Assembly: GCA_025055835.1 (NCBI GenBank)
Contig: JANWWR010000132.1
Location: 52,834 to 116,833, forward strand
Direction: 5' to 3'
Length of the DNA: 64,000 bases
Source: Gemmatales bacterium
GTDB lineage: Bacteria > Planctomycetota > Planctomycetia > Gemmatales > HRBIN36
Numbering within the stretch: position 1 is the stretch's first letter; each line of letters opens with the position of its first letter. Shown here one piece after another: positions 51,116 to 64,000 of this stretch. The notes beneath the pieces were generated by a model. The model had not been told where the DNA came from and made no database searches. It saw nothing but the letters and a program-made list of their open reading frames with translations. The position numbers and the translations under genes are program-made.

Positions 51116-53957
51116 AGTAGCCCATCTCGGCTGCCTCCATGAGAAGCTGCACGGCACGACGAGACAGGGCCTCCCGATACAGTCCGGACGTCTCGGCGTC
51201 ACTGCGAGGGCAAGAGGTGGCAGCCAAGGCGAAGACCAAAGCGGCTTGATAGAGATTGTGGGGGTTCAGTCCGGCGGAGGACGCCAAGACACTTTCGGTG
51301 TCGCGCAGAGCGGCGTCGCACCGGTGGAGATGCACGAGGACGAGGGCCCGTTCCAGAACAAGTTCGTTGGGAATCCCCTGGCCTTCCGCAGCATTGACCG
51401 CCATCGCCCAATCATAGTCCTTCAGGGCCTCGGACCATCGTCGCTGCTTGGCGTGCAAATTGGCGCGGTTCCAATGGACATTCCGAAGGAAAACGCGCGC
51501 TGGCTTATGTTGAGGACGCTGCTGAAGCACCGGAACCAGCAGCTTTTCTGCTTGTCCGAACATATCCAGGGAGGCCGAATACTCCCCTTTGTCGATTAGT
51601 ACGCCAGCTTGATTGCAATAGGTGCCGGCCAAGTTAACGCAATGATCCACAGAGTCATGATGGCGGCGAATCACCTCCAGGTAAAGCGCGCTCGACTTTT
51701 GCAGGCAGGTTAGGGCGGCCTCGGTTTCTTTGCGGTGCCAAAAGGTCAAGCCCAGTTCGCTAAGAACGTTGGCCTGGGTCGTCAGGATGACTGGCGAGGG
51801 ATGCGCCCGCTCCGACAAGCGTTCCAGAATGTCCAGGGCCTCGCGAAGCTCTGCTTCGGCCAAGGCCAGGTATCCCAGTTGGCGGTGCAGGGAACCCAAA
51901 GCGCTGATGCTTTGAGCGAGCCGCAGGGCATAGAATTGTGAATTCGGATGCTTGGCGGCTAATTCGTGGTCAAGCAGCAGGCTTTCTTGGAAGGCTGCTT
52001 CTGCTTCGGCAAATCGCCCATTTTGCCAAGCATGCTTCCCAAGCAGGTTCAGGTCGTGGCTGAGTTGCAAGGGAAACCGCTCATCGTCAGGCTTTCGAAG
52101 GGCCAAGGCTCGGTCGATGCCCAAAGCACGCAGCAGCGCTTCTTCCGCTTCCCGTCGCTGACCCAGTAACGAGCGGACCCGTCCCAGATTAGCGAAGGCT
52201 TTAGCAAGCACATGCAGGTATTCGATGTTGTCTGGCTCAGTGGCCAGGAGACTCCGAAGAACCTGTTCAGCCCGTTCCCAAAGCGGAATCGCCTCCTTGA
52301 ATTGACCCATGACGGAGTGGACGTAGCCCAGGCTAATCGTGGTTTGAGCAGCCAGGAAACGATACTCGGGCTGATCCGGATGTTTCTGGGCCAAATCGGT
52401 GAAAAGCCTGGTAGCTCGCTCATAGTACTGAATGGACTCGGCCCGGTCGCCGACATCGTCGAGGCAATCCGCGACCCGCCAGCAGGCCCTGGCCTCCTCC
52501 TCGCGCAGATGGGGATCCTGGGCGGCCTGAGCGATGAGGCTGCGGTAAAAAGTCAAGGCCTTCTGAGTCAGAGCCTTACGAAGCGCTTCGTTCTCCGGGT
52601 TCTGTAAATCCGGGTTCTCTCGAACCGTGCTCAGAATTTCCTCGACCCCTTGCCGGGCGAGTTTGTAATTAGCTTCGGCCAGCTTCTGGAGGAACTGAGC
52701 TTCTGCCCGTTTACGGTCGGCCTCAGCTTTCTGCTCCTGAGCAAATCGGGCCTCGGCGAGAGCAAGCTGATGGTTTTCCTCGGCCCGTTGCCGCTCCTGT
52801 TCGACGGAGCGGACGTGGTAGGTGCCCAGTCCCAGCAGGCTGACGAGGGCGAGGAAAAGAGTGGCCAGCAAGGCGGCGACGGCGGGCCGACGCTGCGACC
52901 ATTTCCACGCTCGTTCCAACATCGTGCTGGGACGAGCCAGGATCGGTTCCCCGGCCTGGAATCGGCGTAAATCCTCGGCCAACGCTGCGGCTGTCGGGTA
53001 GCGGCGTGACGGCGACTTCTCCAGGCACTTCAGACAGATCGTCTCCAGGTCCTTGGGAATCCCCGGCTGCATGCGGCGAGGCGGAACCGGATCCTGAAAA
53101 CGCACCAGCAGCACGGTTTCGAGCACGTTGGAACCGAGAAAGGGCGGCCGGCCTGTCAGCATCTCATAGAGGATCGCACCCAGGGAATAAATGTCCGCCG
53201 CTGGCCCCACGTTGCGATTTTCGCTGGCGGTCTGTTCCGGCGACATATAGCTGGGTGTGCCCATGACCTCGCCGGTTTTGGTCGTACCCGCCTGTTCCAG
53301 TTGCTTGGCCAGACCGAAGTCGCTGATCTTCGGCACGCCATCTCGGCTAAGGAGGATATTGCTGGGTTTCAGGTCCCGATGGACGATTCCGCGAAGATGG
53401 GCGTGATGAGCCGCCAGGGCCAGGATTTCGACCATGCGGGCAGCGGCCTTGGGTGGCTGCGGACGCCGTTGCAGATGCCCGTCCAGGCTGCCGCCTTCCA
53501 TGTATTCCATGCAGAAATACGGCAAATCGTTCCACAGGCCGACGTCGTAAATCTGCACGATGTTGGGATGATGCAGCCGGGCGGCGGCCTCGACCTCGGT
53601 GCGGAACCGCTGAGCGGCTTCGTCCTGGGCGGCCACGTGGGCGTGAATCATCTTCAAGGCGACGGGTCGGCCCAACCCGCAATGGCGTGCCAGATACACC
53701 ACCCCCATGCCGCCGCGACCCAGCTCGGCAAGGATTTCATAGCCTGCGATCTTTGGCCACTGGTAAACCGAGGGTTCCGACGTGGTATCAGCGCGCCAAT
53801 GAGCCGGGACAGCGGTATTCTGCAAAGCGTCGGGGTGTTTCTCGGAGTCCGCCTGAGGTTTTTCCGTGGCGTCTTTTGATTCCGTTGCCTCGAAACGGAC
53901 CGTCACCTTGGCGGTGGCTCCAAGGAGCTTCATCAGCCAGGATTCGCTCATCAGCAA
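51006..53957 (-). CDS. Ser/Thr protein kinase with TM segment and long TPR-repeat C-terminal region
   Basis: Hanks kinase motifs GRGGMGVVYLA, HRDLKPSNILL, DFGLAK and GTPSYMSPE. A TM segment AVAALLATLFLALVSLLGL follows, then about 600 aa of TPR-like repeats. Confidence 0.9.
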   Translation of the reverse strand: MLMSESWLMKLLGATAKVTVRFEATESKDATEKPQADSEKHPDALQNTAVPAHWRADTTSEPSVYQWPKIAGYEILAELGRGGMGVVYLARHCGLGRPVALKMIHAHVAAQDEAAQRFRTEVEAAARLHHPNIVQIYDVGLWNDLPYFCMEYMEGGSLDGHLQRRPQPPKAAARMVEILALAAHHAHLRGIVHRDLKPSNILLSRDGVPKISDFGLAKQLEQAGTTKTGEVMGTPSYMSPEQTASENRNVGPAADIYSLGAILYEMLTGRPPFLGSNVLETVLLVRFQDPVPPRRMQPGIPKDLETICLKCLEKSPSRRYPTAAALAEDLRRFQAGEPILARPSTMLERAWKWSQRRPAVAALLATLFLALVSLLGLGTYHVRSVEQERQRAEENHQLALAEARFAQEQKAEADRKRAEAQFLQKLAEANYKLARQGVEEILSTVRENPDLQNPENEALRKALTQKALTFYRSLIAQAAQDPHLREEEARACWRVADCLDDVGDRAESIQYYERATRLFTDLAQKHPDQPEYRFLAAQTTISLGYVHSVMGQFKEAIPLWERAEQVLRSLLATEPDNIEYLHVLAKAFANLGRVRSLLGQRREAEEALLRALGIDRALALRKPDDERFPLQLSHDLNLLGKHAWQNGRFAEAEAAFQESLLLDHELAAKHPNSQFYALRLAQSISALGSLHRQLGYLALAEAELREALDILERLSERAHPSPVILTTQANVLSELGLTFWHRKETEAALTCLQKSSALYLEVIRRHHDSVDHCVNLAGTYCNQAGVLIDKGEYSASLDMFGQAEKLLVPVLQQRPQHKPARVFLRNVHWNRANLHAKQRRWSEALKDYDWAMAVNAAEGQGIPNELVLERALVLVHLHRCDAALRDTESVLASSAGLNPHNLYQAALVFALAATSCPRSDAETSGLYREALSRRAVQLLMEAAEMGYFTAGLHPKHRLLVPELEVLRDRADFRELCRRLQVPL

Positions 53958-54195
53958 CCCTTCCCCGGGTCCGCCAAGGGGCGGACGGCGGCAAGGTGGA
54001 CCGACTCGTCGGCATCTGGGAAGGTCTTCCAGGTGGGCGTCATCCGCCGATCGGCCGCAAGCACATTATCCCTGGGAGAAGCATAACATATGGAAGAGTG
54101 AGGAATCGGTATTTCCCCAACAATCCGCTTGGCTTATAGAACAGTCACCGGTTCGATGGCATGCGGAATGTGGGGCCGGAGCAGAATCAGGTGCG

Positions 54196-56001
54196 ATGAC
54201 CGTTTCCATTGATCGCATTCGCAACTTTTGCATCATTGCCCATATTGACCACGGGAAAAGTACGCTCGCCGACCAGTTCCTTCTGAAGACGGGAGCGATT
54301 TCGCCCCGGGAGTTTCGCAGTCAGGCCTTGGACGCGATGGATCTGGAGCGGGAACGCGGCATCACCATCCGCATGCATCCCGTGACCATCTACTACACCC
54401 CGCCGGGTTCCGCGGAGCCTTTTGAACTCAACCTGATCGACACCCCGGGCCATGTGGACTTCAACTATGAGGTGTCCCGGAGCCTGGCAGCCTGCGAGGG
54501 AGCCATCCTCCTGGTGGACGCGGTTCAGGGAGTGCAGGCCCAAACCGTTCACAACGCCTTGCTGGCCTTGGAAGCAAATCTGACCATCGTTCCTGTGGTC
54601 AACAAGATCGACCTGCCCAACGCCCGCACCGACGAGGTGATCCTGGAGATGGAACACGTTCTGGGTATCCGGCCCGAGGAAGTGCTGCGATGCAGTGCCA
54701 AGACCGGGCAGGGCGTGGACGAGGTGCTTCAGGCGGTCATCGAGCGGATTCCGCCGCCTGGGGGCGCGCCGACCGACCCACTGCGGGCCTTGGTGTACAA
54801 CAGCCACTTCGACACCTACCGCGGGGTGGTGGTCTATGTCCGCGTCAAGGAAGGCGAGCTTCGCAAGGGCCAGCGGGTGCGCTTCATGCGGGCCGGGCGA
54901 GAATACGAAGTCAGCGAGCTGGGCCGCTTCCGACCCGCCCCGACGCCGGCGGACTGCCTGACGACCGGACAAGTCGGCTATTTCACGGCCCAGATCCGCG
55001 ATCTGCACGACATCCACATCGGCGACACCGTGACCGACGCCCTTCGTCCCGCCGCCGAGGCTCTGCCTGGTTATGCAGAGCCGAAGCCGATGGTCTTCAG
55101 CGGGTTGTACCCGGTGGACAGCAAGGACTTCGAAGCGCTCCGCGAAGCCCTGGCCCGGCTCAGCCTCAACGACTCCAGCTTCACCTACACGCCGGAGACC
55201 AGCGAGGGATTGGGTTTCGGCTTCCGTTGCGGGTTTCTGGGCATGTTGCACCGGGAGATCATTCAGCAGCGGATCGAGCGGGAGAGCGGCCTGGAACTCG
55301 TCCACACCGCGCCCAACACCACTTACGAAATCCTGACCCGCAAAGGCGAGGTTCTGCAAATCAACAATCCGCAGCAGGTTCCCGACGCCGGACAGATCGC
55401 CGAGTTCCGCGAGCCGATGGTCCGCATCTCCTTCGTCGTCCCGGCTGAGAACATTGGTGACATCATGCAGATCTGTACCGAACGTCGCGGCACTTACATC
55501 CGTACCGACTATCTCAGTCCCAGCCGCGTGCAACTGGTCTTCGAGATGCCCTTGGCGGAGATCATTTACGACCTGTACGACAAGCTGAAGTCTGTCACGC
55601 ACGGCTACGGAACGATGGATTACGAGTTTATCGGTTTCCGTCCGGCCGACCTGGTGCGGCTCGATGTGCTTGTTCACGGCAAGCGGGTGGATGCCCTTTC
55701 GACGATTGTGCATCGCTCCCAGGCGGAACGCCGTGGGCGGAAGCTGGTCAAGAAATTGCGGGGCGAGATCGACCGGCATCAGTTCGAGATCGCCATCCAG
55801 GCTGCTATCGGCAGCCGGGTCATCGCCCGGGAGACCATCGCTCCGTTGCGGAAGAACGTGACCGCCAAGTGCTACGGCGGCGACATCACCCGCAAGCGGA
55901 AACTGCTTGCCAAGCAGGCCGAGGGCAAGAAACGCATGAAACAGGTAGGTCAGGTTTCCATTCCGCAGGAAGCGTTTCTTTCGGTCCTGGAAGCGGAATG
56001 A
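54196..56001 (+). CDS. lepA: translation elongation factor 4 (LepA)
   Basis: IRNFCIIAHIDHGKSTLAD, DTPGHVDF, NKIDL and the LepA-specific C-terminus (KCYGGDITRKRKLL). The true start is ATG 54196. Confidence 0.95.
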   Translation: MTVSIDRIRNFCIIAHIDHGKSTLADQFLLKTGAISPREFRSQALDAMDLERERGITIRMHPVTIYYTPPGSAEPFELNLIDTPGHVDFNYEVSRSLAACEGAILLVDAVQGVQAQTVHNALLALEANLTIVPVVNKIDLPNARTDEVILEMEHVLGIRPEEVLRCSAKTGQGVDEVLQAVIERIPPPGGAPTDPLRALVYNSHFDTYRGVVVYVRVKEGELRKGQRVRFMRAGREYEVSELGRFRPAPTPADCLTTGQVGYFTAQIRDLHDIHIGDTVTDALRPAAEALPGYAEPKPMVFSGLYPVDSKDFEALREALARLSLNDSSFTYTPETSEGLGFGFRCGFLGMLHREIIQQRIERESGLELVHTAPNTTYEILTRKGEVLQINNPQQVPDAGQIAEFREPMVRISFVVPAENIGDIMQICTERRGTYIRTDYLSPSRVQLVFEMPLAEIIYDLYDKLKSVTHGYGTMDYEFIGFRPADLVRLDVLVHGKRVDALSTIVHRSQAERRGRKLVKKLRGEIDRHQFEIAIQAAIGSRVIARETIAPLRKNVTAKCYGGDITRKRKLLAKQAEGKKRMKQVGQVSIPQEAFLSVLEAE

Positions 56002-56097
56002 TCGACTGCGCCAGGCCCAAGCCCCCTGCGAATTCCGGGGGGAACTGAACCCGGGACAAACCCGTGAAAGGGCTAGGTCTTGCGGAGAAGCCGTCCT

Positions 56098-58341
56098 ATG
56101 ATAAGCGACGGCCTTTTACCAACCGAGGATCGCATGACCGAAAGTGCCGCTGAGAAACCCTCGTATCCGTCGTCGGGGTCCTCCCCTGCCAGCGCGGAAC
56201 CGTCCTTTGTCCAGCGTGTCAAAGCGGAACTTTTTCGGCCCCGCTCACGGCGTCCCAAGGAAGATGGCAAAGACACTCCCCGCGGCGACTCGCTGCGGGA
56301 ATCGGTCGAGACCGTGGTTTTCGTGATCGTTCTGGTCCTCATGCTCAAGGCCTTCGTGGCCGAGGCGTTCGTTATACCCACCGGCTCGATGGCCACCAGC
56401 CTGCTCGGCTATCACCGTCACGCTCATTGCCAGCAGTGCGGTCATGAGTTTCCCGTCAATGCCAGCGACGACGCCGAGGGTTCCCGCCGGGGCCAGGGCC
56501 AACTGGCATCCCTGGCGGTCTGTCCCAATTGCCGGAACATCCAGCCGCTCCAGCCCGGCATCGACGGCGGCGACAAGGTGCTTGTGCTCAAGCCGCACTA
56601 CGATCTTCACAGCCCTCAGCGGCTGGATGTGTTCGTGTTCAAATACCCTGGCAAGCAGGAAAGCGACGGAAGACGGATCGGTGGTCCGCAGGAGAACTTT
56701 ACTGCCAAGAACTACATCAAGCGTCTGTGGGGCTTGCCTGGGGAGAAACTCAGCATCTGGCACGGGGACGTCTACTTGATCGAGGGCGGCAAGGACGGAC
56801 AACCGCTGCGGCGGGAGATCATTCGCAAACCCCCCGTGAAAATGCTGGAGATGCGAAGGTCGGTGAGTGACGCGGATCAAGTCGCTGCGGACCTCAAGGA
56901 TTTCCTGCCGCCCTTGTGGGCCGATGAACAACCCGGTCAAGGTTGGCAGACCACGGACGCCTCGGGGACATTTCAGGTGCAGGCGGGTGCCGAGGAACGT
57001 CGGCTGCGCTACCGGCATTTCCTGCGGCCGCCGCCTTTGCCGGCCCAGACGATCCAGCGTGTCGCGTCATCCATCCGTATGATCGGCAATGCGGTGTCCG
57101 ACGCCCAGCGGGAACGGCTGGTCGGCACCGATGCCCTGGCCAACCTAGTTCGCTCCCTGGAGGCTGAACTGCCCGCGCTGGACGAAGTGACGCTGCTTCC
57201 GACCGCTTCGCGCAACGCGCAATTCCGCGAAATCCTCACCCGCCTGGAGAAGCGCTTCACGGATGTTGAAGAAGGGTTGGCGGTGTTGCGTCGGGCCGAC
57301 GGCCGACCTGTCGAGGACGCCGAATTCGGACCCAACTTCAAGGAGCGGATTCGGTTGGAGGTCCAATCCGGCAAACAGGCCCTGAGCGAGTTGCGGGACA
57401 CCTGGGAGGCCGCTCTGCAATGTGCCAACCGACCACAACTGATCACCGACTTTCTCGGTTACAACGCCCTGGTCTCCGCGTACCGCCAGTCGAATTTCTT
57501 TTATCCCCGAGAATGGGCCGGGGAACATGAACCGCATTGGGTCCGGGATCTCATGGTTGAATGCACCGTCGAAGTGCTTCAGCCCGGCGGAACTTTCGGG
57601 CTGGAGATTCAAGCAGGGTGTGATCTGCACCGGGCCACCTTCGACCTGAGCAGCGGCGAATGCGTGCTGCGGGTCTTGCGGTTTAACAACGGGCCGGAGC
57701 CGAAGGAGATAGCCGTTCAAAAGGCTGTCACGAGGCTTGGCAAACCGGGCAAGTATCGCCTCCGTTTCAGCAATTTCGATGAGCGCTTGACGTTATGGGT
57801 CGATGGCAGCCTGCCATTTGGCGACGGCTTGGCCTTCCCCAGTCCGTCGGCGGAAGACCGAGCGCCACGGGTCGGGGATACCAAGCCGGTCGCTCTCGTG
57901 GCCAAAGAAGCGGCTGTTCGGGTCAGCCAGCTTCGGCTCTTCCGGGACATCTACTACACCCGCTCGGCCGGTCGGCTGCCGACGGAATATGAGGACCTGC
58001 GTTTGCTCGATCTCAGCGCCCTGGGGGTGACAAGTTTTCTGAGCCTGTCGGCCCAGGAAACGCAATTGCCTGCTCATGCCAAAATCGAACGCTGGGAACC
58101 CATCGGACGGCAGAGGCCGTGGTACTATCCGATGGGCATGCGCCAGGAGTTCGGCCACGGATTCCCCGATCCGGAACTGAGCAACGGGCCGGTCTTCGGA
58201 CCTGATGAGTTCTTCGCCCTGGGCGACAATAGCACCCGCAGCTCCGACAGCCGCGAGTGGGGACAAGTGCCACGCCGCCTGTTTCTGGGTAAGGCCGTCA
58301 TCGTCTATTGGCCCTACACCCGCTTCGGAATCATTTGGTGA
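56098..58341 (+). CDS. lepB: signal peptidase I, unusually large (~750 aa) with zinc-ribbon and a large insertion
   Basis: SPase I boxes present. Box B is IPTGSMATSL (Ser codon 56386-56388). Box C is GGDKVLVLK. Box D is NYIKRLWGLPGEKL (Lys 56719-56721). Box E is GDNSTRSSDSREWG (from 58222). A CxxC..CxxC motif (HCQQCGHEF...CPNCRN) spans 56428-56532. Alternative starts are ATG 56134 or the ORF opening at 56080. Confidence 0.85.
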   Translation: MISDGLLPTEDRMTESAAEKPSYPSSGSSPASAEPSFVQRVKAELFRPRSRRPKEDGKDTPRGDSLRESVETVVFVIVLVLMLKAFVAEAFVIPTGSMATSLLGYHRHAHCQQCGHEFPVNASDDAEGSRRGQGQLASLAVCPNCRNIQPLQPGIDGGDKVLVLKPHYDLHSPQRLDVFVFKYPGKQESDGRRIGGPQENFTAKNYIKRLWGLPGEKLSIWHGDVYLIEGGKDGQPLRREIIRKPPVKMLEMRRSVSDADQVAADLKDFLPPLWADEQPGQGWQTTDASGTFQVQAGAEERRLRYRHFLRPPPLPAQTIQRVASSIRMIGNAVSDAQRERLVGTDALANLVRSLEAELPALDEVTLLPTASRNAQFREILTRLEKRFTDVEEGLAVLRRADGRPVEDAEFGPNFKERIRLEVQSGKQALSELRDTWEAALQCANRPQLITDFLGYNALVSAYRQSNFFYPREWAGEHEPHWVRDLMVECTVEVLQPGGTFGLEIQAGCDLHRATFDLSSGECVLRVLRFNNGPEPKEIAVQKAVTRLGKPGKYRLRFSNFDERLTLWVDGSLPFGDGLAFPSPSAEDRAPRVGDTKPVALVAKEAAVRVSQLRLFRDIYYTRSAGRLPTEYEDLRLLDLSALGVTSFLSLSAQETQLPAHAKIERWEPIGRQRPWYYPMGMRQEFGHGFPDPELSNGPVFGPDEFFALGDNSTRSSDSREWGQVPRRLFLGKAVIVYWPYTRFGIIW

Positions 58342-58355
58342 CCGAGCCGAAGATC

Positions 58356-58751
58356 ATGGCCGAAGGCTTACCCTTCTGCGACACCTGGATCCGCGTCCGT
58401 TACGCCGAAACCGACCGCATGGGCTACCTGCACCATGCCATGTATCCCGTCTATTTCGAGCAGGGCCGCACCGAACTGCTGCGGCAGCAGGGCGTGTCTT
58501 ATCGTCGCATGGAGGACGAGGGCTTCTTCCTGGCGGTGGTAAAACTCGAGGTGCGGTTCCGACGACCCGCCTACTTCGACGACCTGCTTCGGCTCCGGAC
58601 GACGTTGACCCGTGTCACCGCAGTGCGGGTGGAACATCGCTACGAACTGTTCCGCGACGACGAACTGATTTGCGAAGCAACGACGACGCTTGCCTGCGTA
58701 GATCGCGACGGCAGGCTCCAAGCCCTCCCGGAAGAACTGCGTAAAGGCTGA
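58356..58751 (+). CDS. 4HBT/YbgC-type acyl-CoA thioesterase
   Basis: WIRVRYAETDRMGYLHHAMYPVYFEQGR is a hot-dog fold with the YbgC-like catalytic Asp context. 131 aa. ATG 58356 lies 14 nt after the lepB stop. Confidence 0.85.
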   Translation: MAEGLPFCDTWIRVRYAETDRMGYLHHAMYPVYFEQGRTELLRQQGVSYRRMEDEGFFLAVVKLEVRFRRPAYFDDLLRLRTTLTRVTAVRVEHRYELFRDDELICEATTTLACVDRDGRLQALPEELRKG

Positions 58752-58836: not shown

Positions 58837-59355
58837 ATGCGCAGGTTCGTCATTCGTCGCCTCCTGCCGACGCTTTTTTGCCTGGTTCCCCTGGCCGGGG
58901 CCGTGCTCGTCGTGGTCGCCGTTCCGACCCAGGCGCTTCAGTTTTATCTTGCCAGCATCCGCACTTCCTACCTGGACTGGATCATCCTGGCTTTGGGCGG
59001 TTTCTTCTTCTTGTTCCAGATGGCCCTGGCCTGGCGGGCATTGCGGTGGAAGGAGCGCAGCTTCGACGAACGAAGCGATGCTCTTCTCCAGGGCATGTAT
59101 CAGGCGGCGGAGTGGTTTCCACTATTGGGCCTGTTCGGCACGGTGGCGGGCATCTTGCAGACGTTCGCGGCCATCGGGGTGCAGGAGTCGGTGCCGCAGC
59201 GGGAGATCATCCGCCTGTACGCCCCGGCCCTGACGACGACCGGCAGCGGTCTGCTGATGACGCTGCTGAACATCGTTCCGCTGTGGCTGGTGATCGTCGG
59301 CCGCCGCGTGATTCTGACGCTGGCCGTGACTCCCCCGGCCGTCGAGGAGCCGTGA
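58837..59355 (+). CDS. MotA/TolQ/ExbB-family proton-channel protein (short, 172 aa)
   Basis: About 4 TM segments. Family signature WFPLLGLFGTVAGILQTFAAI ... YAPALTTTGSGLLMTLLNIVP. Confidence 0.7.
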   Translation: MRRFVIRRLLPTLFCLVPLAGAVLVVVAVPTQALQFYLASIRTSYLDWIILALGGFFFLFQMALAWRALRWKERSFDERSDALLQGMYQAAEWFPLLGLFGTVAGILQTFAAIGVQESVPQREIIRLYAPALTTTGSGLLMTLLNIVPLWLVIVGRRVILTLAVTPPAVEEP

Positions 59356-59358
59356 CCG

Positions 59359-59877
59359 ATGACTCCGCCCAAGGGAAGCCGCAGCATCGTCCGGTTCCTG
59401 CTGCCGATGGCCGACATCATGGCGCTGCTCTTCTCGTTCTTTCTCCTTTTGCCCCATCTGGAGCACGATCCGGACAAGGCCCCGGCGGAGTCGCCGACGG
59501 GAAGTCTGTGGGCCTGGCAAGAGCAGGAGCAGTTGCGCGAGGAATTGCAGCGGCTGAGGCGACGCAGCCGGTTGCCCGTGGACGAACGACTCATGATCGT
59601 CGTGCTGGACATCGACGGCGATACCGGAGACCTTCTGCTGACCCAGAGTGGAAAAGTTCAGCGGCTCAATGCGGCCAGCATCGACAACGTCATTCAGGGA
59701 CATCTGGCTCGGGCCAGGGCGGAGGACCGCGAGTTGTTTTACCTCCTGAGAGTGCCACGACCGGATGAAAAGGGCAGCCGACCGCATCCGACCGTTGCCG
59801 ATGAGATGCTCTACCGCCGCGTGTTCGGGCGGCGTAAGGTGGATTTCCGCATCGACTACCCTCGTTTGGCGGAGTGA
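59359..59877 (+). CDS. TolR/ExbD-like protein
   Basis: N-terminal TM RFLLPMADIMALLFSFFLLL carries the conserved membrane Asp (GAC 59413-59415). The periplasmic part LMIVVLDIDGDTGDLLLTQSGKVQRL resembles the ExbD fold pattern. Starts 3 nt after the upstream stop. Confidence 0.65.
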   Translation: MTPPKGSRSIVRFLLPMADIMALLFSFFLLLPHLEHDPDKAPAESPTGSLWAWQEQEQLREELQRLRRRSRLPVDERLMIVVLDIDGDTGDLLLTQSGKVQRLNAASIDNVIQGHLARARAEDRELFYLLRVPRPDEKGSRPHPTVADEMLYRRVFGRRKVDFRIDYPRLAE

Positions 59878-59882
59878 CAGTC

Positions 59883-60557
59883 ATGGGTTTTACGGCACAA
59901 TCCCGCCTTTCCGACTGGTTTGCCGGTTCCGATCCGATCAGCGTTTTGCTGTGGACCGCCTACGTTTTCGTGGTCGTCTCCTCGGCGTTGATCGGCGGGT
60001 TCGTGACTGGCTTCGCGTTTCAGCACGTGGCCAGATTGATTGTTCGTGACCTGTCGGTTCGGGCTGTGAGCCGGGCGAGAATGATCGGCGGCGTCGTGGC
60101 GGCCATCCTGGCGGTGATGCTGCTCAATCCCGGCTGGCTGGGGCTGGGCGGAGGCGGTGCATCGGGACCCGAGGAGCAAGGCTCCGCCAAAGTTCAGCCG
60201 ACCAGCGATCCCAAGCCGTCGGAGGAGCCGCCTCCTCAACCCCAGCCTCCAACGTTGGCCGAGAAGGCGTCCGGCAACGGCATCGTGCGCATCCTCATCC
60301 TCGGCCCCGAAACGCAGCCCCCCTGGCAAGAGAAGAACCGCTATTTTGCCTTCCTCGACGATCCCATGCCCGAGGCGTTGGATGTGGGTGAAGTAATGAA
60401 GCGGATCGAGTCCCTTCGGCAGCAAAAGCCGGTGCGCGAAGTGGAACTCGTGGTCGTTCCGCAAAGCACTTCACCCAGGAATATCCCGGTGCAGAGCTTG
60501 CGATCGGAGCTGCAAGCCAAAGGCTTGCGGGTGTACGTGCCGCCGGAATTGCCCTGA
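59883..60557 (+). CDS. membrane protein with Gly/Pro-rich spacer and C-terminal ExbD/TolA-III-sized domain (TolA/TonB-like architecture)
   Basis: Two TM segments (ISVLLWTAYVFVVVSSALIGGFVTGFAF, MIGGVVAAILAVMLL). GLGGGGASGP precedes the Pro-rich PKPSEEPPPQPQPP. The C-terminal region is VRILILGPE...VREVELVVVPQSTS...GLRVYV. ATG 59883 lies 8 nt after GGAG. An alternative GTG at 59874 overlaps the upstream stop. Confidence 0.55.
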   Translation: MGFTAQSRLSDWFAGSDPISVLLWTAYVFVVVSSALIGGFVTGFAFQHVARLIVRDLSVRAVSRARMIGGVVAAILAVMLLNPGWLGLGGGGASGPEEQGSAKVQPTSDPKPSEEPPPQPQPPTLAEKASGNGIVRILILGPETQPPWQEKNRYFAFLDDPMPEALDVGEVMKRIESLRQQKPVREVELVVVPQSTSPRNIPVQSLRSELQAKGLRVYVPPELP

Positions 60558-60575
60558 TTGCCGGAGGTCCGCTCG

Positions 60576-62498
60576 ATGACGTCGGCATGTCGGGTCGAGA
60601 TCGTGGGTCCGCCCGATTCCGGCAAGGAGGAACTTCTCCGCCATCTGCGACAGGTTCAAGACGCTGCCGTGAATCTGGATTGGATTGCCGCGGAGGAACC
60701 GACCCCCGCCGCCGACGCGGTTCTGTTCGCGTGTCCGGCCCAGGAAACAGGAACACCTCTTCGCCAGCACCTGGCCGAGCTTTCCCGCCAGATGCGTGAA
60801 CTGTCCACCCTCCGCGGCGGGGCCTGCCAGGCAGCAGGATTTCCCGTCTTCATCGTCCTGACCCGAGCCGAACTTCTCGCGGAGCCGAAGCAGTCCTTCC
60901 AGGACTGGTTGGAGCTTCTGGAAACGCGCAAACAGCAACTCAGCCGCTTGTTTCTGTCCTTGATGGGACCGGGAGGAACCCACGGCTTTGGGGCCGCTCG
61001 GGTGTTCGTCTGGGCGACGGCGGGTCGTCGGCCGGGGCTGACTCCCGATAAGACCAGAAGTGAACAGCCGTTCGGCGTGCAAGAACTGGCTCGGCAGGTG
61101 CAATCGGCCGTCGCCGACCATCGCCAACGACAACGGAGACAAGAGCGGCGATTGCGATGGCTTTTGATTCTGTCCTTGGCTTCGTTGGCGGTGTTAGCGC
61201 TGACGGCACTCGGCTTTTTCCTGGCGGGGTCGGCTCGCTCGGAACTCTGGCCCGAAAAACCCGAACCGATCTGGGAACCCGGCGAACTCTTGGTCCAAGG
61301 CGAGCGACTGCTGGATTCCTCACGACGGCTGATTTCCTTCGAAGGCTATGTCCAGCCGTCGGAGACTGAACCACGGCTTTCTTCATCGGCATCAACGCAT
61401 TTTGTGGTGGACTGGCACCGATGGAGCAGGGATGCGCGGCAAGTCCTCGGGGAGATTCCGCTGTTGAGGTCCCAACTGGCCGCGGAGCGGATCGGGGAAA
61501 CGCTCAGCGCTCGCTTGCATGCCGCCGAGGACGATCTCGCCGCCCTGTTGGCTCGCGCCGGGGCCCTCGGTCTGGCTCCCGACAACGAGGCCAAATCCGC
61601 GTGGCTGCGCTTCCCGGCACGGACAGACGAGGATTGGCCGAAATATCGAGCCGATCTTAAAACCCGCCTGGAAGCTGTGGACAAATCGCAGGCAGCCGCG
61701 ATTTTCCGTCCGTTCCCTTGGGAGGTGCCAACCGGCGTCGTCGAACTCTATCGACAAGCCGCTCGGAGCAGTCTGGAGAATCTGCTCGAACCCGTCCGCC
61801 AGGAAATCCGCCGGCGTGTGATGGATTTGGGTCAGCAGCAGGAGACGGTTGAAGCGTGGCGAGCTTTGGCCGAAGGCTGGCTATCGAATCAAGCCGAGGC
61901 GGAACTGTACGAATGGCGGCAATTTGCCTTGCTCTTGGCGAAGCTGAGCGGTGAGGCTGAGCCGAGCGATCCGCTGGTCGAACTGGTTTCCTTTCTCCGC
62001 CAGTCCGAGTTCAAGTTGCCGCTGGACCGTGTGATGCTTCAGCTACCCGCCCGAATCGTCTCCGGCGAGCAGATCATCATCGGACTTAGACCGATCCCAG
62101 CACCGCTGACCATTCAAATAACAGGCACTTCGGGAGCCGTGACCGTGCTTGAGTTGTTGCCCCTCACGGAAACGGCCCGGCCGTCGGCCGTGGCAGGAGA
62201 ATATGTGTTCGCAGCAGCGCGGAACAGTCCGCTTTCGGAGGGCTTCCTGCGGGTCAAGCCCGGAGAGCGAATTTCAGCCCGGGCACTCCTCGAGGATGCG
62301 GATGGGCTCAAATGGGAACTGATTTGGTCCCCCGCCGACAGCCCTTCTCAGATTTACATGCACACGCTGCTGGCCCAGGTCCCAAGGTTGCGCCCGGTGC
62401 AAGGGGCACCGTCAGCTACCGCGCCCATTGCGTTCGGAGCGCGGCTGCGTTTTTTGGATCCCAGAGCGTTCGACCTGCCGAGACTGTTTCCCCGCTGA
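60576..62498 (+). CDS. membrane-anchored P-loop (GTPase-like) protein with large extracytoplasmic C-terminal region
   Basis: RVEIVGPPDSGKEELL is a Walker-A-like motif at 60606-60629 with Glu in place of Ser/Thr. FPVFIVLTRAEL sits at the G4-like position. A TM segment LRWLLILSLASLAVLALTALGFFLAG spans ~61155-61226, followed by ~420 aa without recognisable motifs. ATG 60576 lies 8 nt after GGAGG (60563-60567). Confidence 0.6.
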   Translation: MTSACRVEIVGPPDSGKEELLRHLRQVQDAAVNLDWIAAEEPTPAADAVLFACPAQETGTPLRQHLAELSRQMRELSTLRGGACQAAGFPVFIVLTRAELLAEPKQSFQDWLELLETRKQQLSRLFLSLMGPGGTHGFGAARVFVWATAGRRPGLTPDKTRSEQPFGVQELARQVQSAVADHRQRQRRQERRLRWLLILSLASLAVLALTALGFFLAGSARSELWPEKPEPIWEPGELLVQGERLLDSSRRLISFEGYVQPSETEPRLSSSASTHFVVDWHRWSRDARQVLGEIPLLRSQLAAERIGETLSARLHAAEDDLAALLARAGALGLAPDNEAKSAWLRFPARTDEDWPKYRADLKTRLEAVDKSQAAAIFRPFPWEVPTGVVELYRQAARSSLENLLEPVRQEIRRRVMDLGQQQETVEAWRALAEGWLSNQAEAELYEWRQFALLLAKLSGEAEPSDPLVELVSFLRQSEFKLPLDRVMLQLPARIVSGEQIIIGLRPIPAPLTIQITGTSGAVTVLELLPLTETARPSAVAGEYVFAAARNSPLSEGFLRVKPGERISARALLEDADGLKWELIWSPADSPSQIYMHTLLAQVPRLRPVQGAPSATAPIAFGARLRFLDPRAFDLPRLFPR

Positions 62499-62523: not shown

Positions 62524-64000
62524 TCAGTTCCTGTCAGGAACATCCACAGACCAGGCCGCCGAGACAGCCACGGCATCTTTCTCCGGTCCCTCGGGATAGG
62601 TTAGTTCCATCACGGCGTCGAGATAGGCTCGGGCTTCAACGACCAACCGGGTCGCGGGATCGATCCACATGATGCCGTGGAGTGCCCCTTGAGTCATTGT
62701 CTTGCCGGGAACGGCATCGCCGCTGAAGCGAATGCACACCAGCTTCTTCCCGGCCCGTTCTGCGAGGCCGTCGGGGGTGTAGGAGACATTGAACTGCATC
62801 GGTTCCTGGACGCTGAGCGGGTCGCCGGCAAGCGACACCGTGGCATTCCAGGAGCGGCCAGGCCGCAATTCGTTTTCCTTCTCCGGCACCTGGAAGATGC
62901 TGAAGATCTGGTCAACAACGCGATGCAATCCGGCCAGTTCGCCGCGAAATTCCCCAGCGGCGGCAAAGCGAGGTTCGTTCCCCTGGGCTTGCACGTTTCC
63001 TTGTGCATTCTGCTGATTGAGAATCGCCTGAACGAGCGGGCGAGGCAGCGGACGTTCGCCGACACGCACGCCGAGGTCGAACCCGAGATAGCGTTCCGGG
63101 GTCCCTTTTGCGTCTAGCTCGGTTCGGCAACCCAGGTTGACCGTCAAGGGCGTGGGGGACCCGGCTTCTCCGCCCCGTTGAACTACCCGATAACGTGCCA
63201 AGAGCCTCCGTGCTTGACTGTCTGCGTCCGCGGGAGATTTCAGTGCCGCCTGGGCAGTTTGGACAGCCAGGGCGGGGCGATAGGTGACGCCGTTACTGAC
63301 GCGGTAGGTGCCATCCTTCTCGGCGACATAAGCCCGCAAGTGATAAACCTGATTGTCCGGCAATGGAGGCAGCTTCAGTACACCTCTCCGCCAGATCGCC
63401 CGGTCCGCGGGAAGAGCAAGCCGATTCTCCGCGGGTAAATCCGTGACCCAACCGGCCGATTGCTTCGCCTCAGCGTCGCCGATGCTCCAGGCCACCCCAA
63501 GCTCCGTGAATCGGTGCAGGGGATCCGACACTTCCAGACTGACCGGCAGCAGGATGCCGCCGTTTTGCTGCTGAGGCATGCCAAGGATCAGGTCGCCGAA
63601 GCGTCCGTGGTACAATTGCCAGACATGCTCGGCGGGGACAGCGAAGCTGATGCCCGTATTCCGCAGAAAGTTGACGTAGATCGAAACCGCGACTCCGACG
63701 ACCCGTCCCTGGGCGTCCACGACTGGCCCACCGGAATTTCCGGGATTAAGTTCGCCATTCATCTGAATGCGGTACATGTCCTTGCCATCTCGAACGAAGC
63801 TGGCCACCGAAACCTTGCTCGTGGACATGCGGGTGTTCAGGTTCTCGCCGTAGGGGAATCCAAAGGCCACCAGCAGCTGTGTGCGAAACAGCGTGGAAGC
63901 AGAGACGACCTTGAGCGGCTCGGGCAGTTCGACGCCTTTGGCATCCACCTGAAGCAAGGCCAGATCGAGATGGCCATCAGCGTGGAGCACCTTGGCCTGA
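62524..64000 (-). CDS. trypsin-like (S1C) serine protease with long C-terminal extension, 5' end outside the window
   Basis: The reading frame stays open to the window edge (..QAKVLHADGHLDLALLQV). Catalytic Asp context is DLALLQV and the Ser motif is LNPGNSGGPVVD. The ~330-aa C-terminal region has no recognised motifs. The track's M at 63990 is an internal GTG (Val). Confidence 0.8.
   Translation of the reverse strand, partial: QAKVLHADGHLDLALLQVDAKGVELPEPLKVVSASTLFRTQLLVAFGFPYGENLNTRMSTSKVSVASFVRDGKDMYRIQMNGELNPGNSGGPVVDAQGRVVGVAVSIYVNFLRNTGISFAVPAEHVWQLYHGRFGDLILGMPQQQNGGILLPVSLEVSDPLHRFTELGVAWSIGDAEAKQSAGWVTDLPAENRLALPADRAIWRRGVLKLPPLPDNQVYHLRAYVAEKDGTYRVSNGVTYRPALAVQTAQAALKSPADADSQARRLLARYRVVQRGGEAGSPTPLTVNLGCRTELDAKGTPERYLGFDLGVRVGERPLPRPLVQAILNQQNAQGNVQAQGNEPRFAAAGEFRGELAGLHRVVDQIFSIFQVPEKENELRPGRSWNATVSLAGDPLSVQEPMQFNVSYTPDGLAERAGKKLVCIRFSGDAVPGKTMTQGALHGIMWIDPATRLVVEARAYLDAVMELTYPEGPEKDAVAVSAAWSVDVPDRN

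Follow-up and report, generated by a model that had tools for sequence, protein, structure and literature searches.

A short form of a bitopic G-domain protein family, with a decayed nucleotide site, encoded beside TolQ/TolR-like motor genes in Gemmatales

We analysed a stretch of DNA of 64,000 nucleotides (nt) from a Gemmatales bacterium (contig JANWWR010000132.1, positions 52,834 to 116,833 of the forward strand; the window), in which the gene at 60576-62498 on the forward strand (+), called the target here, encodes a predicted bitopic inner-membrane protein composed of a degenerate G-domain, a transmembrane (TM) helix and an orphan periplasmic domain. This description draws on the open reading frame (ORF), its homologs and a structural model. 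The reading we favour, to which we assign a probability of about 65%, takes the target in one explanation as the short form of an uncharacterised bitopic family, as a pseudo-GTPase, and as a partner of a TolQ/TolR-like motor. The family is unnamed, has no Pfam model and has no solved relative of its periplasmic domain. Comparison of the target with Pfam, NCBIfam, PADLOC and the sequences of the PDB gave nothing usable for direct family assignment, none of the curated models reached its cutoff with it, and in the literature on planctomycete Tol/Exb systems and GTPases we found no paper on the family.

The ORF that contains the target was listed at 60558-62498 (+) with a TTG start. The better start is most likely the ATG at 60576, giving a product of 640 amino acids (aa), because a GGAGG sequence at 60563-60567 is spaced 8 nt from this ATG and because the N-termini of all three close orthologs read M-R-[S/P]-A-C-R-V-E-I-V-G-P-P; the NCBI entry 'hypothetical protein NZM31_10095 [Gemmatales bacterium]' has the identical 640-aa sequence. 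Hydropathy gave a sole TM helix at aa 193-217 (61152-61226, +), which was also helical in the AlphaFold2 model, where the juxtamembrane and TM segments formed one continuous helix from aa 168 to 219. The TM helix is flanked by the Arg-rich stretch RRQERRLRW on its N side and by an acidic stretch on its C side; by the positive-inside rule the N-terminus is therefore predicted to be cytoplasmic, with about 190 aa inside and about 420 aa in the periplasm. On the same strand, the cytoplasmic G-like domain occupies aa 1-165 (60576-61070) and has a five-stranded sheet but no switch regions, as judged from the model, Foldseek and alignment; the models place a periplasmic helical bundle at aa 235-476 (61278-62003) and a beta-rich C-terminal domain at aa 477-640 (62004-62495). 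An earlier reading of the sequence alone, the original prediction, had described much of this layout. Its single TM helix (~61155-61226) and its helical and beta-rich region of about 420 aa downstream agree with our assignments, and translation reproduced both of the motifs that it had singled out, a Walker A-like G-P-P-D-S-G-K-E at aa 11-18 (60606-60629, +) and the stretch F-I-V-L-T-R-A-E at aa 92-99 (60849-60872, +).

The evidence that the cytoplasmic domain has a G-domain fold came from structure prediction, a check that the original prediction itself had proposed. The AlphaFold2 model of the whole protein, for which 20 homologs were used, had a mean predicted local distance difference test score (pLDDT) of 86.9, and its N-terminal domain was a five-stranded alpha/beta structure with pLDDT mostly between 83 and 94 across aa 11-150. 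When this domain was compared with the PDB by Foldseek, it matched GTPases at a probability of 1.00, with E values of 2.6e-4 to 1e-2 for the top matches; the matches included Sulfolobus SsGBP (E 2.6e-4), mini-G alpha, Rag, SR-beta, Arf and MnmE, and also the pseudo-GTPases IRGQ and CENP-M. The target thus has, in its model, the fold of canonical P-loop GTPases of the TRAFAC class. A bare GxxxxGK pattern alone is weak evidence for a P-loop: about 0.04 occurrences are expected from the composition of the target, and the six-frame ORFs of the window contain 0.21 per 640 aa. As the bare pattern is not rare, the meaning of GPPDSGKE rests on fold and homology. It sits after strand beta-1 of the modelled G-domain, in a domain whose structural matches are GTPases, and it aligns column by column with the canonical GxxGAGK[ST] of the homologs, from which we concluded that it is a true P-loop relic.

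A word-indexed search found only three orthologs, with 58-60% identity to the target, and a search with a 20-sequence profile had the same outcome; an exhaustive profile search, in contrast, yielded 373 cluster representatives. The family occurs in two forms, a long form of about 830 aa in Gemmataceae and a short form of about 640 aa, which includes the target. Nearly all of the long forms (94 of 95) carry a canonical GxxxxGK[ST], they have a Walker B/G3 motif of the form hhDCDG, and 83 of 95 have [T/S/A]KCD at the G4 position. At E values of 0.01 or less, Pfam models matched many of the 55 long forms compared, DO-GTPase2 matching 36 and MMR_HSR1 matching 25, and a long-form profile matched MnmE, Der, Arl3 and FlhF in the PDB. 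The canonical motifs, the Pfam matches and the profile matches together indicate that the long forms are, by their sequences, genuine TRAFAC-class GTPases. Alignment of the short forms to the long forms showed that the short forms lack about 55 aa holding switch I and strand beta-2 and about 30 aa holding switch II, so that the G2 Thr of switch I and the G3 DxxG are absent, with their surrounding segments, from the target and from all aligned short forms. The target therefore shares the G-domain fold of TRAFAC-class GTPases, whose G1 GxxxxGK[ST], G3 DxxG and G4 TKxD are present in its long-form relatives, but it differs from them in that it has neither the Walker A Ser/Thr nor the switch regions, G3 or a canonical G4; its family differs further from that class in having a TM and periplasmic architecture and an operon context of its own.

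Within the short forms, the nucleotide site itself was highly variable. The three closest orthologs have G-P-P-x-S-D-K-[S/A]-E in the P-loop and T-Q-A-D at G4, so that the Glu following the Lys and the Gly preceding it are both not conserved at 58-60% identity. Among about 19 complete short forms, three (P0006, P0011 and P0030) retain a canonical Walker A motif, three further ones have GAGK followed by A or R, and in the remainder the motif is lost (for example GASDPSTL, GPLPAGGA and RADEPDAP). A neighbour-joining tree, made on the shared region of 20 short forms, an intermediate sequence (P0119) and 66 long forms, placed the short forms and P0119 in a single clade separate from the long forms, with the canonical P-loops scattered inside this clade. 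P0119 (612 aa) has long-type G1-G4 spacing yet groups beside P0030, and may be an intermediate. The simplest reading of these sequences is that the deletion happened once and that the nucleotide site then decayed repeatedly and independently. The G4 relic T-R-A-E (60861-60872, +), as aligned with the orthologs and the family, corresponds to a family consensus [T/S/A]-K-C-D in which Thr is usual at the first position, and only the changes from Lys to Arg and from Asp to Glu are local to the target. The N-terminal domain did not differ in conservation from the remainder of the protein (59% identity to the close orthologs compared with 53-60% elsewhere), which argues that it is still constrained and has been retained for something other than catalysis. 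As the switch regions are deleted and the Walker A motif is canonical in only three of about 19 members of its clade, we interpret the target as a probable pseudo-GTPase, which kept the fold and family-specific conserved surfaces and lost the switch for GTP hydrolysis.

The original prediction had offered two possibilities, a pseudo-nucleoside triphosphatase (pseudo-NTPase) scaffold or an NTPase with unusual chemistry or specificity, and it is the first that survived. The second would make the N-terminal domain an active enzyme, in which the Glu replaces the Walker A Ser/Thr in metal binding and TRAE alters the base specificity. Such an enzyme would be in keeping with the retention of G11, G16 and K17, with an acidic residue at the position of the G4 Asp, and with the purifying selection on the domain. 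In the three closest orthologs, however, E18 is replaced by A or S and G16 by Asp; switch I, beta-2, DxxG and switch II are deleted across the clade; and several members, such as P0016, have lost the P-loop while keeping the operon context. The Lys-Glu pair thus was not borne out as a conserved feature, the supposed specificity motif proved to be a local variant of [T/S/A]KCD, and the presence of canonical GxxxxGK[ST] in the more distant relatives marks the target as a locally degenerate copy, the very finding by which the original prediction said its proposal would fall. We regard an active enzyme of this kind as very unlikely.

A milder version would have the domain bind nucleotide without hydrolysing it, constitutively loaded with GTP or GDP in the manner of Rnd and RhoH, with the nucleotide acting as a structural cofactor. 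The intact fold found by AlphaFold2 and Foldseek would suit this proposal, as would the retained Gly-Gly-Lys of the P-loop, T96, E99 and a G5-like W-A-T-A; but the Mg-ligand Ser/Thr and the Thr of switch I are absent, the motifs vary freely across the clade, and the Asp that directly precedes the P-loop Lys in the close orthologs should disfavour phosphate binding. Because of this Asp, nucleotide binding is unlikely to be a conserved property of the clade, and we consider the proposal as a whole rather unlikely. The pseudo-GTPase that we favour has structural precedents in CENP-M and IRGQ, which likewise keep the fold of a G-domain as a structural module although its nucleotide motifs are degenerate; these proteins, however, are unrelated to the target in sequence, eukaryotic, and neither membrane-anchored nor associated with a motor.

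The last part of the favoured reading, partnership with a motor, rests on the neighbouring genes. In the window, the order is LepA, a long signal peptidase I, a YbgC/FadM-type thioesterase, TolQ-like, TolR-like, a membrane protein of 227 aa (p227) and the target. The first gene of the conserved cluster, at 58356-58751 (+), encodes a YbgC/FadM-type acyl-CoA thioesterase (Pfam 4HBT_2, E 1.7e-18); its likely start is ATG 58356, which gives 131 aa as in the orthologs. It scored 85 bits with NCBIfam TIGR00051 (YbgC/FadM; cutoff 68.7), and its best NCBIfam match was thio_ybgC at 91 bits, which is below the equivalog cutoff. A TolQ/ExbB/MotA-like proton-channel subunit of 172 aa follows at 58837-59355 (+); its match to Pfam MotA_ExbB (E 3.3e-09) was above the cutoff, NCBI names the product 'MotA/TolQ/ExbB proton channel family protein', and its conserved signatures are AAEWFPLLGLxGTVAGI and APAxTxTGSGL. 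The next gene, at 59359-59877 (+), encodes a TolR/ExbD/MotB-like subunit, also of 172 aa, with one TM helix that contains an invariant Asp (LLPMADIMALLF). This assignment drew on weak Pfam matches of aa 12-36 to MotB_plug and ExbD, on a profile match to the TM/plug region of MotB in the PDB (E 0.07), and on 13 orthologs in which P16, D19 and F25 are invariant. Between the TolR-like gene and the target lies p227 (59874-60557, +), an orphan membrane protein recognised from its ORF and its conserved position, with two TM helices, a Gly/Pro-rich linker (PSEEPPPQPQPP) and an alpha/beta C-terminal domain of about 90 aa; it had no match in Pfam, NCBIfam, PADLOC or the PDB. The genes are tightly packed, with 3 nt between the TolQ-like and TolR-like genes, a 4-nt overlap between the TolR-like gene and p227, and 18 nt between p227 and the target. 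The Tol-Pal operon has the layout ybgC-tolQ-tolR-tolA-tolB-pal. In the window cluster YbgC-, TolQ- and TolR-like genes are present, and the Pfam and NCBIfam models for TolA, TolB and Pal matched none of the genes there.

The gene order of the target was repeated in the contigs of its orthologs. A genome scan made with the GTPase, using patterns taken from an alignment biased towards the long forms that bear FLVLTKCD, gave 39 loci, in Gemmataceae, Gemmatales or other Planctomycetota, except for three with odd labels of metagenome-assembled genomes (MAGs). Apart from these three labels, the family is known only from Gemmatales or other Planctomycetota. The three loci (L005, L032 and L040) have a planctomycete-type operon in MAGs labelled 'uncultured Alcaligenaceae bacterium', probably through mis-binning or mislabelling. 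Where there was enough upstream DNA to count (37 loci), the TolQ-like, TolR-like, p227 and GTPase genes occurred in this order at 31, p227 stood between the TolR-like and GTPase genes at each of these 31 complete loci, and in most loci a thioesterase gene lay upstream of the TolQ-like gene. The reverse test started from metagenome loci fetched with the TolQ-like gene, 32 of which had at least 2.3 kb of downstream sequence; at 25 of them a GTPase-family ORF lay about 1.1-1.3 kb downstream of the TolQ-like gene, and p227 was detected at all 25 of these loci but at none of the other seven. The module was found both beside the short form P0006, which has a canonical P-loop, and beside P0016, in which the P-loop is gone, so that the association with the motor genes is independent of the state of the nucleotide site. 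The adjacency is therefore strong in both directions, frequent but not obligatory, and the coupling of the target to the upstream TolQR-like genes, which the original prediction had suggested from position in this one window, gained support from gene order in both sets of loci.

Remodelled on its own, the periplasmic part (410 aa) reached a pLDDT of 89 and a predicted template modelling score of 0.84, as a compact helical bundle plus a beta domain, the latter ending in a conserved motif LP.LFPR and containing invariant W584, P603, P635 and L637. Neither Pfam nor sequence and profile searches of the PDB gave a match for this part, and Foldseek found no significant match to its model in the PDB (best E 0.016, probability below 0.25). 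The rows for Cry toxin, PirB and MexA/AcrA were rejected, as their probabilities were 0.23 or less and their template modelling (TM) scores below 0.2.

In outline, the role of the target may resemble that of the single-pass motor partners TolA, TonB and GltJ. Like them, it is a bitopic protein that has its N-terminus inside and a large portion in the periplasm, and its gene lies downstream of tolQ-like and tolR-like genes, with a ybgC-like gene ahead of them as in tol-pal operons. In Myxococcus, GltJ operates with the Agl motor, which is TolQR-like; a single TM helix joins its periplasmic domain to a cytosolic domain by which MglA-GTP is read (PMC11135422). The likeness to GltJ extends to the sizeable cytoplasmic domain, tied in GltJ to the small GTPase MglA (PMC11135422), although in the target the G-domain is fused rather than recruited. 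Newly proposed non-TonB transducers are encoded beside tolQ and paired tolR-like genes in bacteria of the PVC superphylum (PMC12204202). Members of the same superphylum as the target and, like it, known from genes alone, they share its arrangement of a tolQ-like gene, one or more tolR-like genes and then a TM-anchored periplasmic protein; the target differs from them in lacking a vWA domain and a SHLS motif and in having an added cytoplasmic G-domain. IcmF/TssM was also considered; faint matches to IcmF-related_N occurred in two of 55 long forms (best E 0.0029), and no IcmF-related domain of Pfam matched the target.

We propose from these comparisons that the target would act with a proton-driven motor of 5:2 type formed by the TolQ-like and TolR-like proteins, probably as a motor-associated component that offers its orphan periplasmic domain to the envelope. 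In species with long forms, the cytoplasmic G-domain might gate or localise the motor-linked activity according to its nucleotide state. In the lineage of the target, this nucleotide control would have been lost, or replaced by constitutive docking, leaving the G-domain as a switchless docking or scaffold module. The target would then be a motor-associated single-pass envelope protein with a fused and, here, vestigial G-domain.

Several observations weigh against this proposal. The TM helix of the target (LRWLLILSLASLAVLALTALGFFLAG) lacks the SHLS/His motif of the TolA/TonB type; it has no His at all, and none is conserved in its relatives, whereas the His of SHLS is essential in TolA and TonB. 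The periplasmic part is modelled as a folded bundle of helices, with no extended or Pro-rich linker comparable to domain II and no TonB_C or TolA_C domain. For want of the SHLS/His motif and a TonB_C domain, we rejected membership of the target in the TolA/TonB group. With its TM segment, Pro-rich linker and small C-terminal domain, p227 fits the template of a force transducer better than the target does, and in architecture it looks closer than the target to a transducer of the TonB/TolA type or to a second TolR. A comparison of p227 with the periplasmic part of the TolR-like protein by hhalign gave a weak, in-register match (P 0.004, probability 8%); given these values and an empty profile search of the PDB, we do not claim p227 as a second TolR/ExbD. 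The gene association also has exceptions: six genome loci (L014, L020, L021, L023, L028 and L036) have a canonical long-form gene with no TolQ, TolR or p227 gene nearby; the seven TolQ-anchored loci without p227 and the GTPase (L069, L071, L080, L090, L099, L100 and L119) include five that have a TolR-like gene; and the gene for the short form P0072 stands alone. The incomplete genome and metagenome loci may represent paralogs, with the full module lying elsewhere in those genomes, or split systems. L036, we note, comes from the same MAG as L015. Finally, the persistence of G11, G16, K17 and the acidic G4 residue E99 is compatible with nucleotide binding without hydrolysis.

Two further proposals would assign the whole family elsewhere. 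In one, it would consist of remodelling GTPases of the atlastin/Sey1/dynamin type that shape the invaginated cytoplasmic membrane of Gemmatales, and the adjacency to TolQR would be incidental. The layout of an N-terminal large G-domain, a long helix and a TM helix fits such proteins, as do the long G1-G3 and G3-G4 spacings of the long forms and the TKxD-type G4, which is also that of dynamins. Sey1p even appeared among the Foldseek matches of the N-terminal domain, but the alignment was poor (TM score 0.19, root-mean-square deviation 34 Å). The bulk of the target lies in the periplasm, which sets it apart from fusion dynamins; the features required of a mechanochemical GTPase are gone from the short form, which nevertheless stays conserved and syntenic; and the association with the TolQ, TolR and p227 genes was found from both directions. 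We give this proposal only a slim chance.

The other would make the family a conflict or defence system of the DO-GTPase type, with no envelope function. The matches to DO-GTPase2 in 36 of 55 long forms point this way, although P0047 alone scored above the Pfam gathering threshold (29.9 against 27 bits), and N-terminal TM segments occur in some DO-GTPases, about 13% of them (PMC7159879). The target itself, however, has no match to the Pfam models concerned (PF19993 and PF19975; Kaur et al. 2020), the Walker B motif of the long forms has Asp (hhDCDG) and not the defining Glu, and PADLOC returned nothing except a marginal match of the target to Csx3 (E 0.022, 12 bits). The genomic context is fixed and housekeeping-like across the order (lepA, lepB, ybgC, tolQ and tolR), and neither a GAP1-like gene nor a variable effector was recognised among the listed neighbours, although no search by name was made for GAP1. 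We rejected the defence reading, which we hold to be extremely improbable, on the grounds of Walker B, context and score.

A bolder extension of the motor-partner reading, which we hold to be possible but doubtful, is that the four-gene module constitutes a new, Gemmatales-specific, proton-driven envelope machine, gated by the GTPase from the cytoplasm and perhaps substituting for Tol-Pal. The lineage of the target would then be switch-deleted and run its machine without nucleotide control. Gemmatales are FtsZ-less, budding bacteria, and if the proposal is true, a substitute for Tol-Pal would serve remodelling of the outer membrane or the cytoplasmic membrane in them.

The genes flanking the cluster had features of their own. 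The signal peptidase I upstream (56080-58341, +) is unusually long at 753 aa, a large insertion interrupts its S26 catalytic core, and a CxxC...CxxC segment before the core gave faint matches to IBR and FYVE zinc fingers; several Gemmataceae loci (for example L003 and L011) have two to four tandem signal peptidase I paralogs upstream of the thioesterase. The LepA ORF (53866-56001, +) encodes 711 aa from a GTG, with an N-terminal extension of about 110 aa relative to orthologs of 601 aa, and overlaps in this extension the end of a minus-strand ORF of 983 aa; judged by the length of the orthologs, its real start is near 54.2 kb (MTVSIDRIRNF...). Downstream of the target, a trypsin/HtrA-like serine protease gene at 62524-63990 (-) runs past the end of the window, with 25 nt between its stop codon and that of the target. 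The same convergent arrangement occurs in the short-form loci L001/L002 and L042. A query with the protease from the window found no homolog in the long-form Gemmataceae loci, where the downstream genes were not otherwise annotated.

With respect to its G1 and G4 motifs the target is ordinary, as they are those of a decayed copy and not of a new chemistry. Its interest lies in the family. If the favoured reading is correct, the TolQR/ExbBD/MotAB superfamily would gain a new kind of partner, one that crosses the membrane once and has a cytoplasmic G-domain fused to it, and would gain it in planctomycetes, a group whose cell division and envelope remodelling are still little understood. Together the long and short forms provide a natural experiment on the contribution of the GTPase switch, and the contrast between them could be tested in genetically tractable Gemmataceae.

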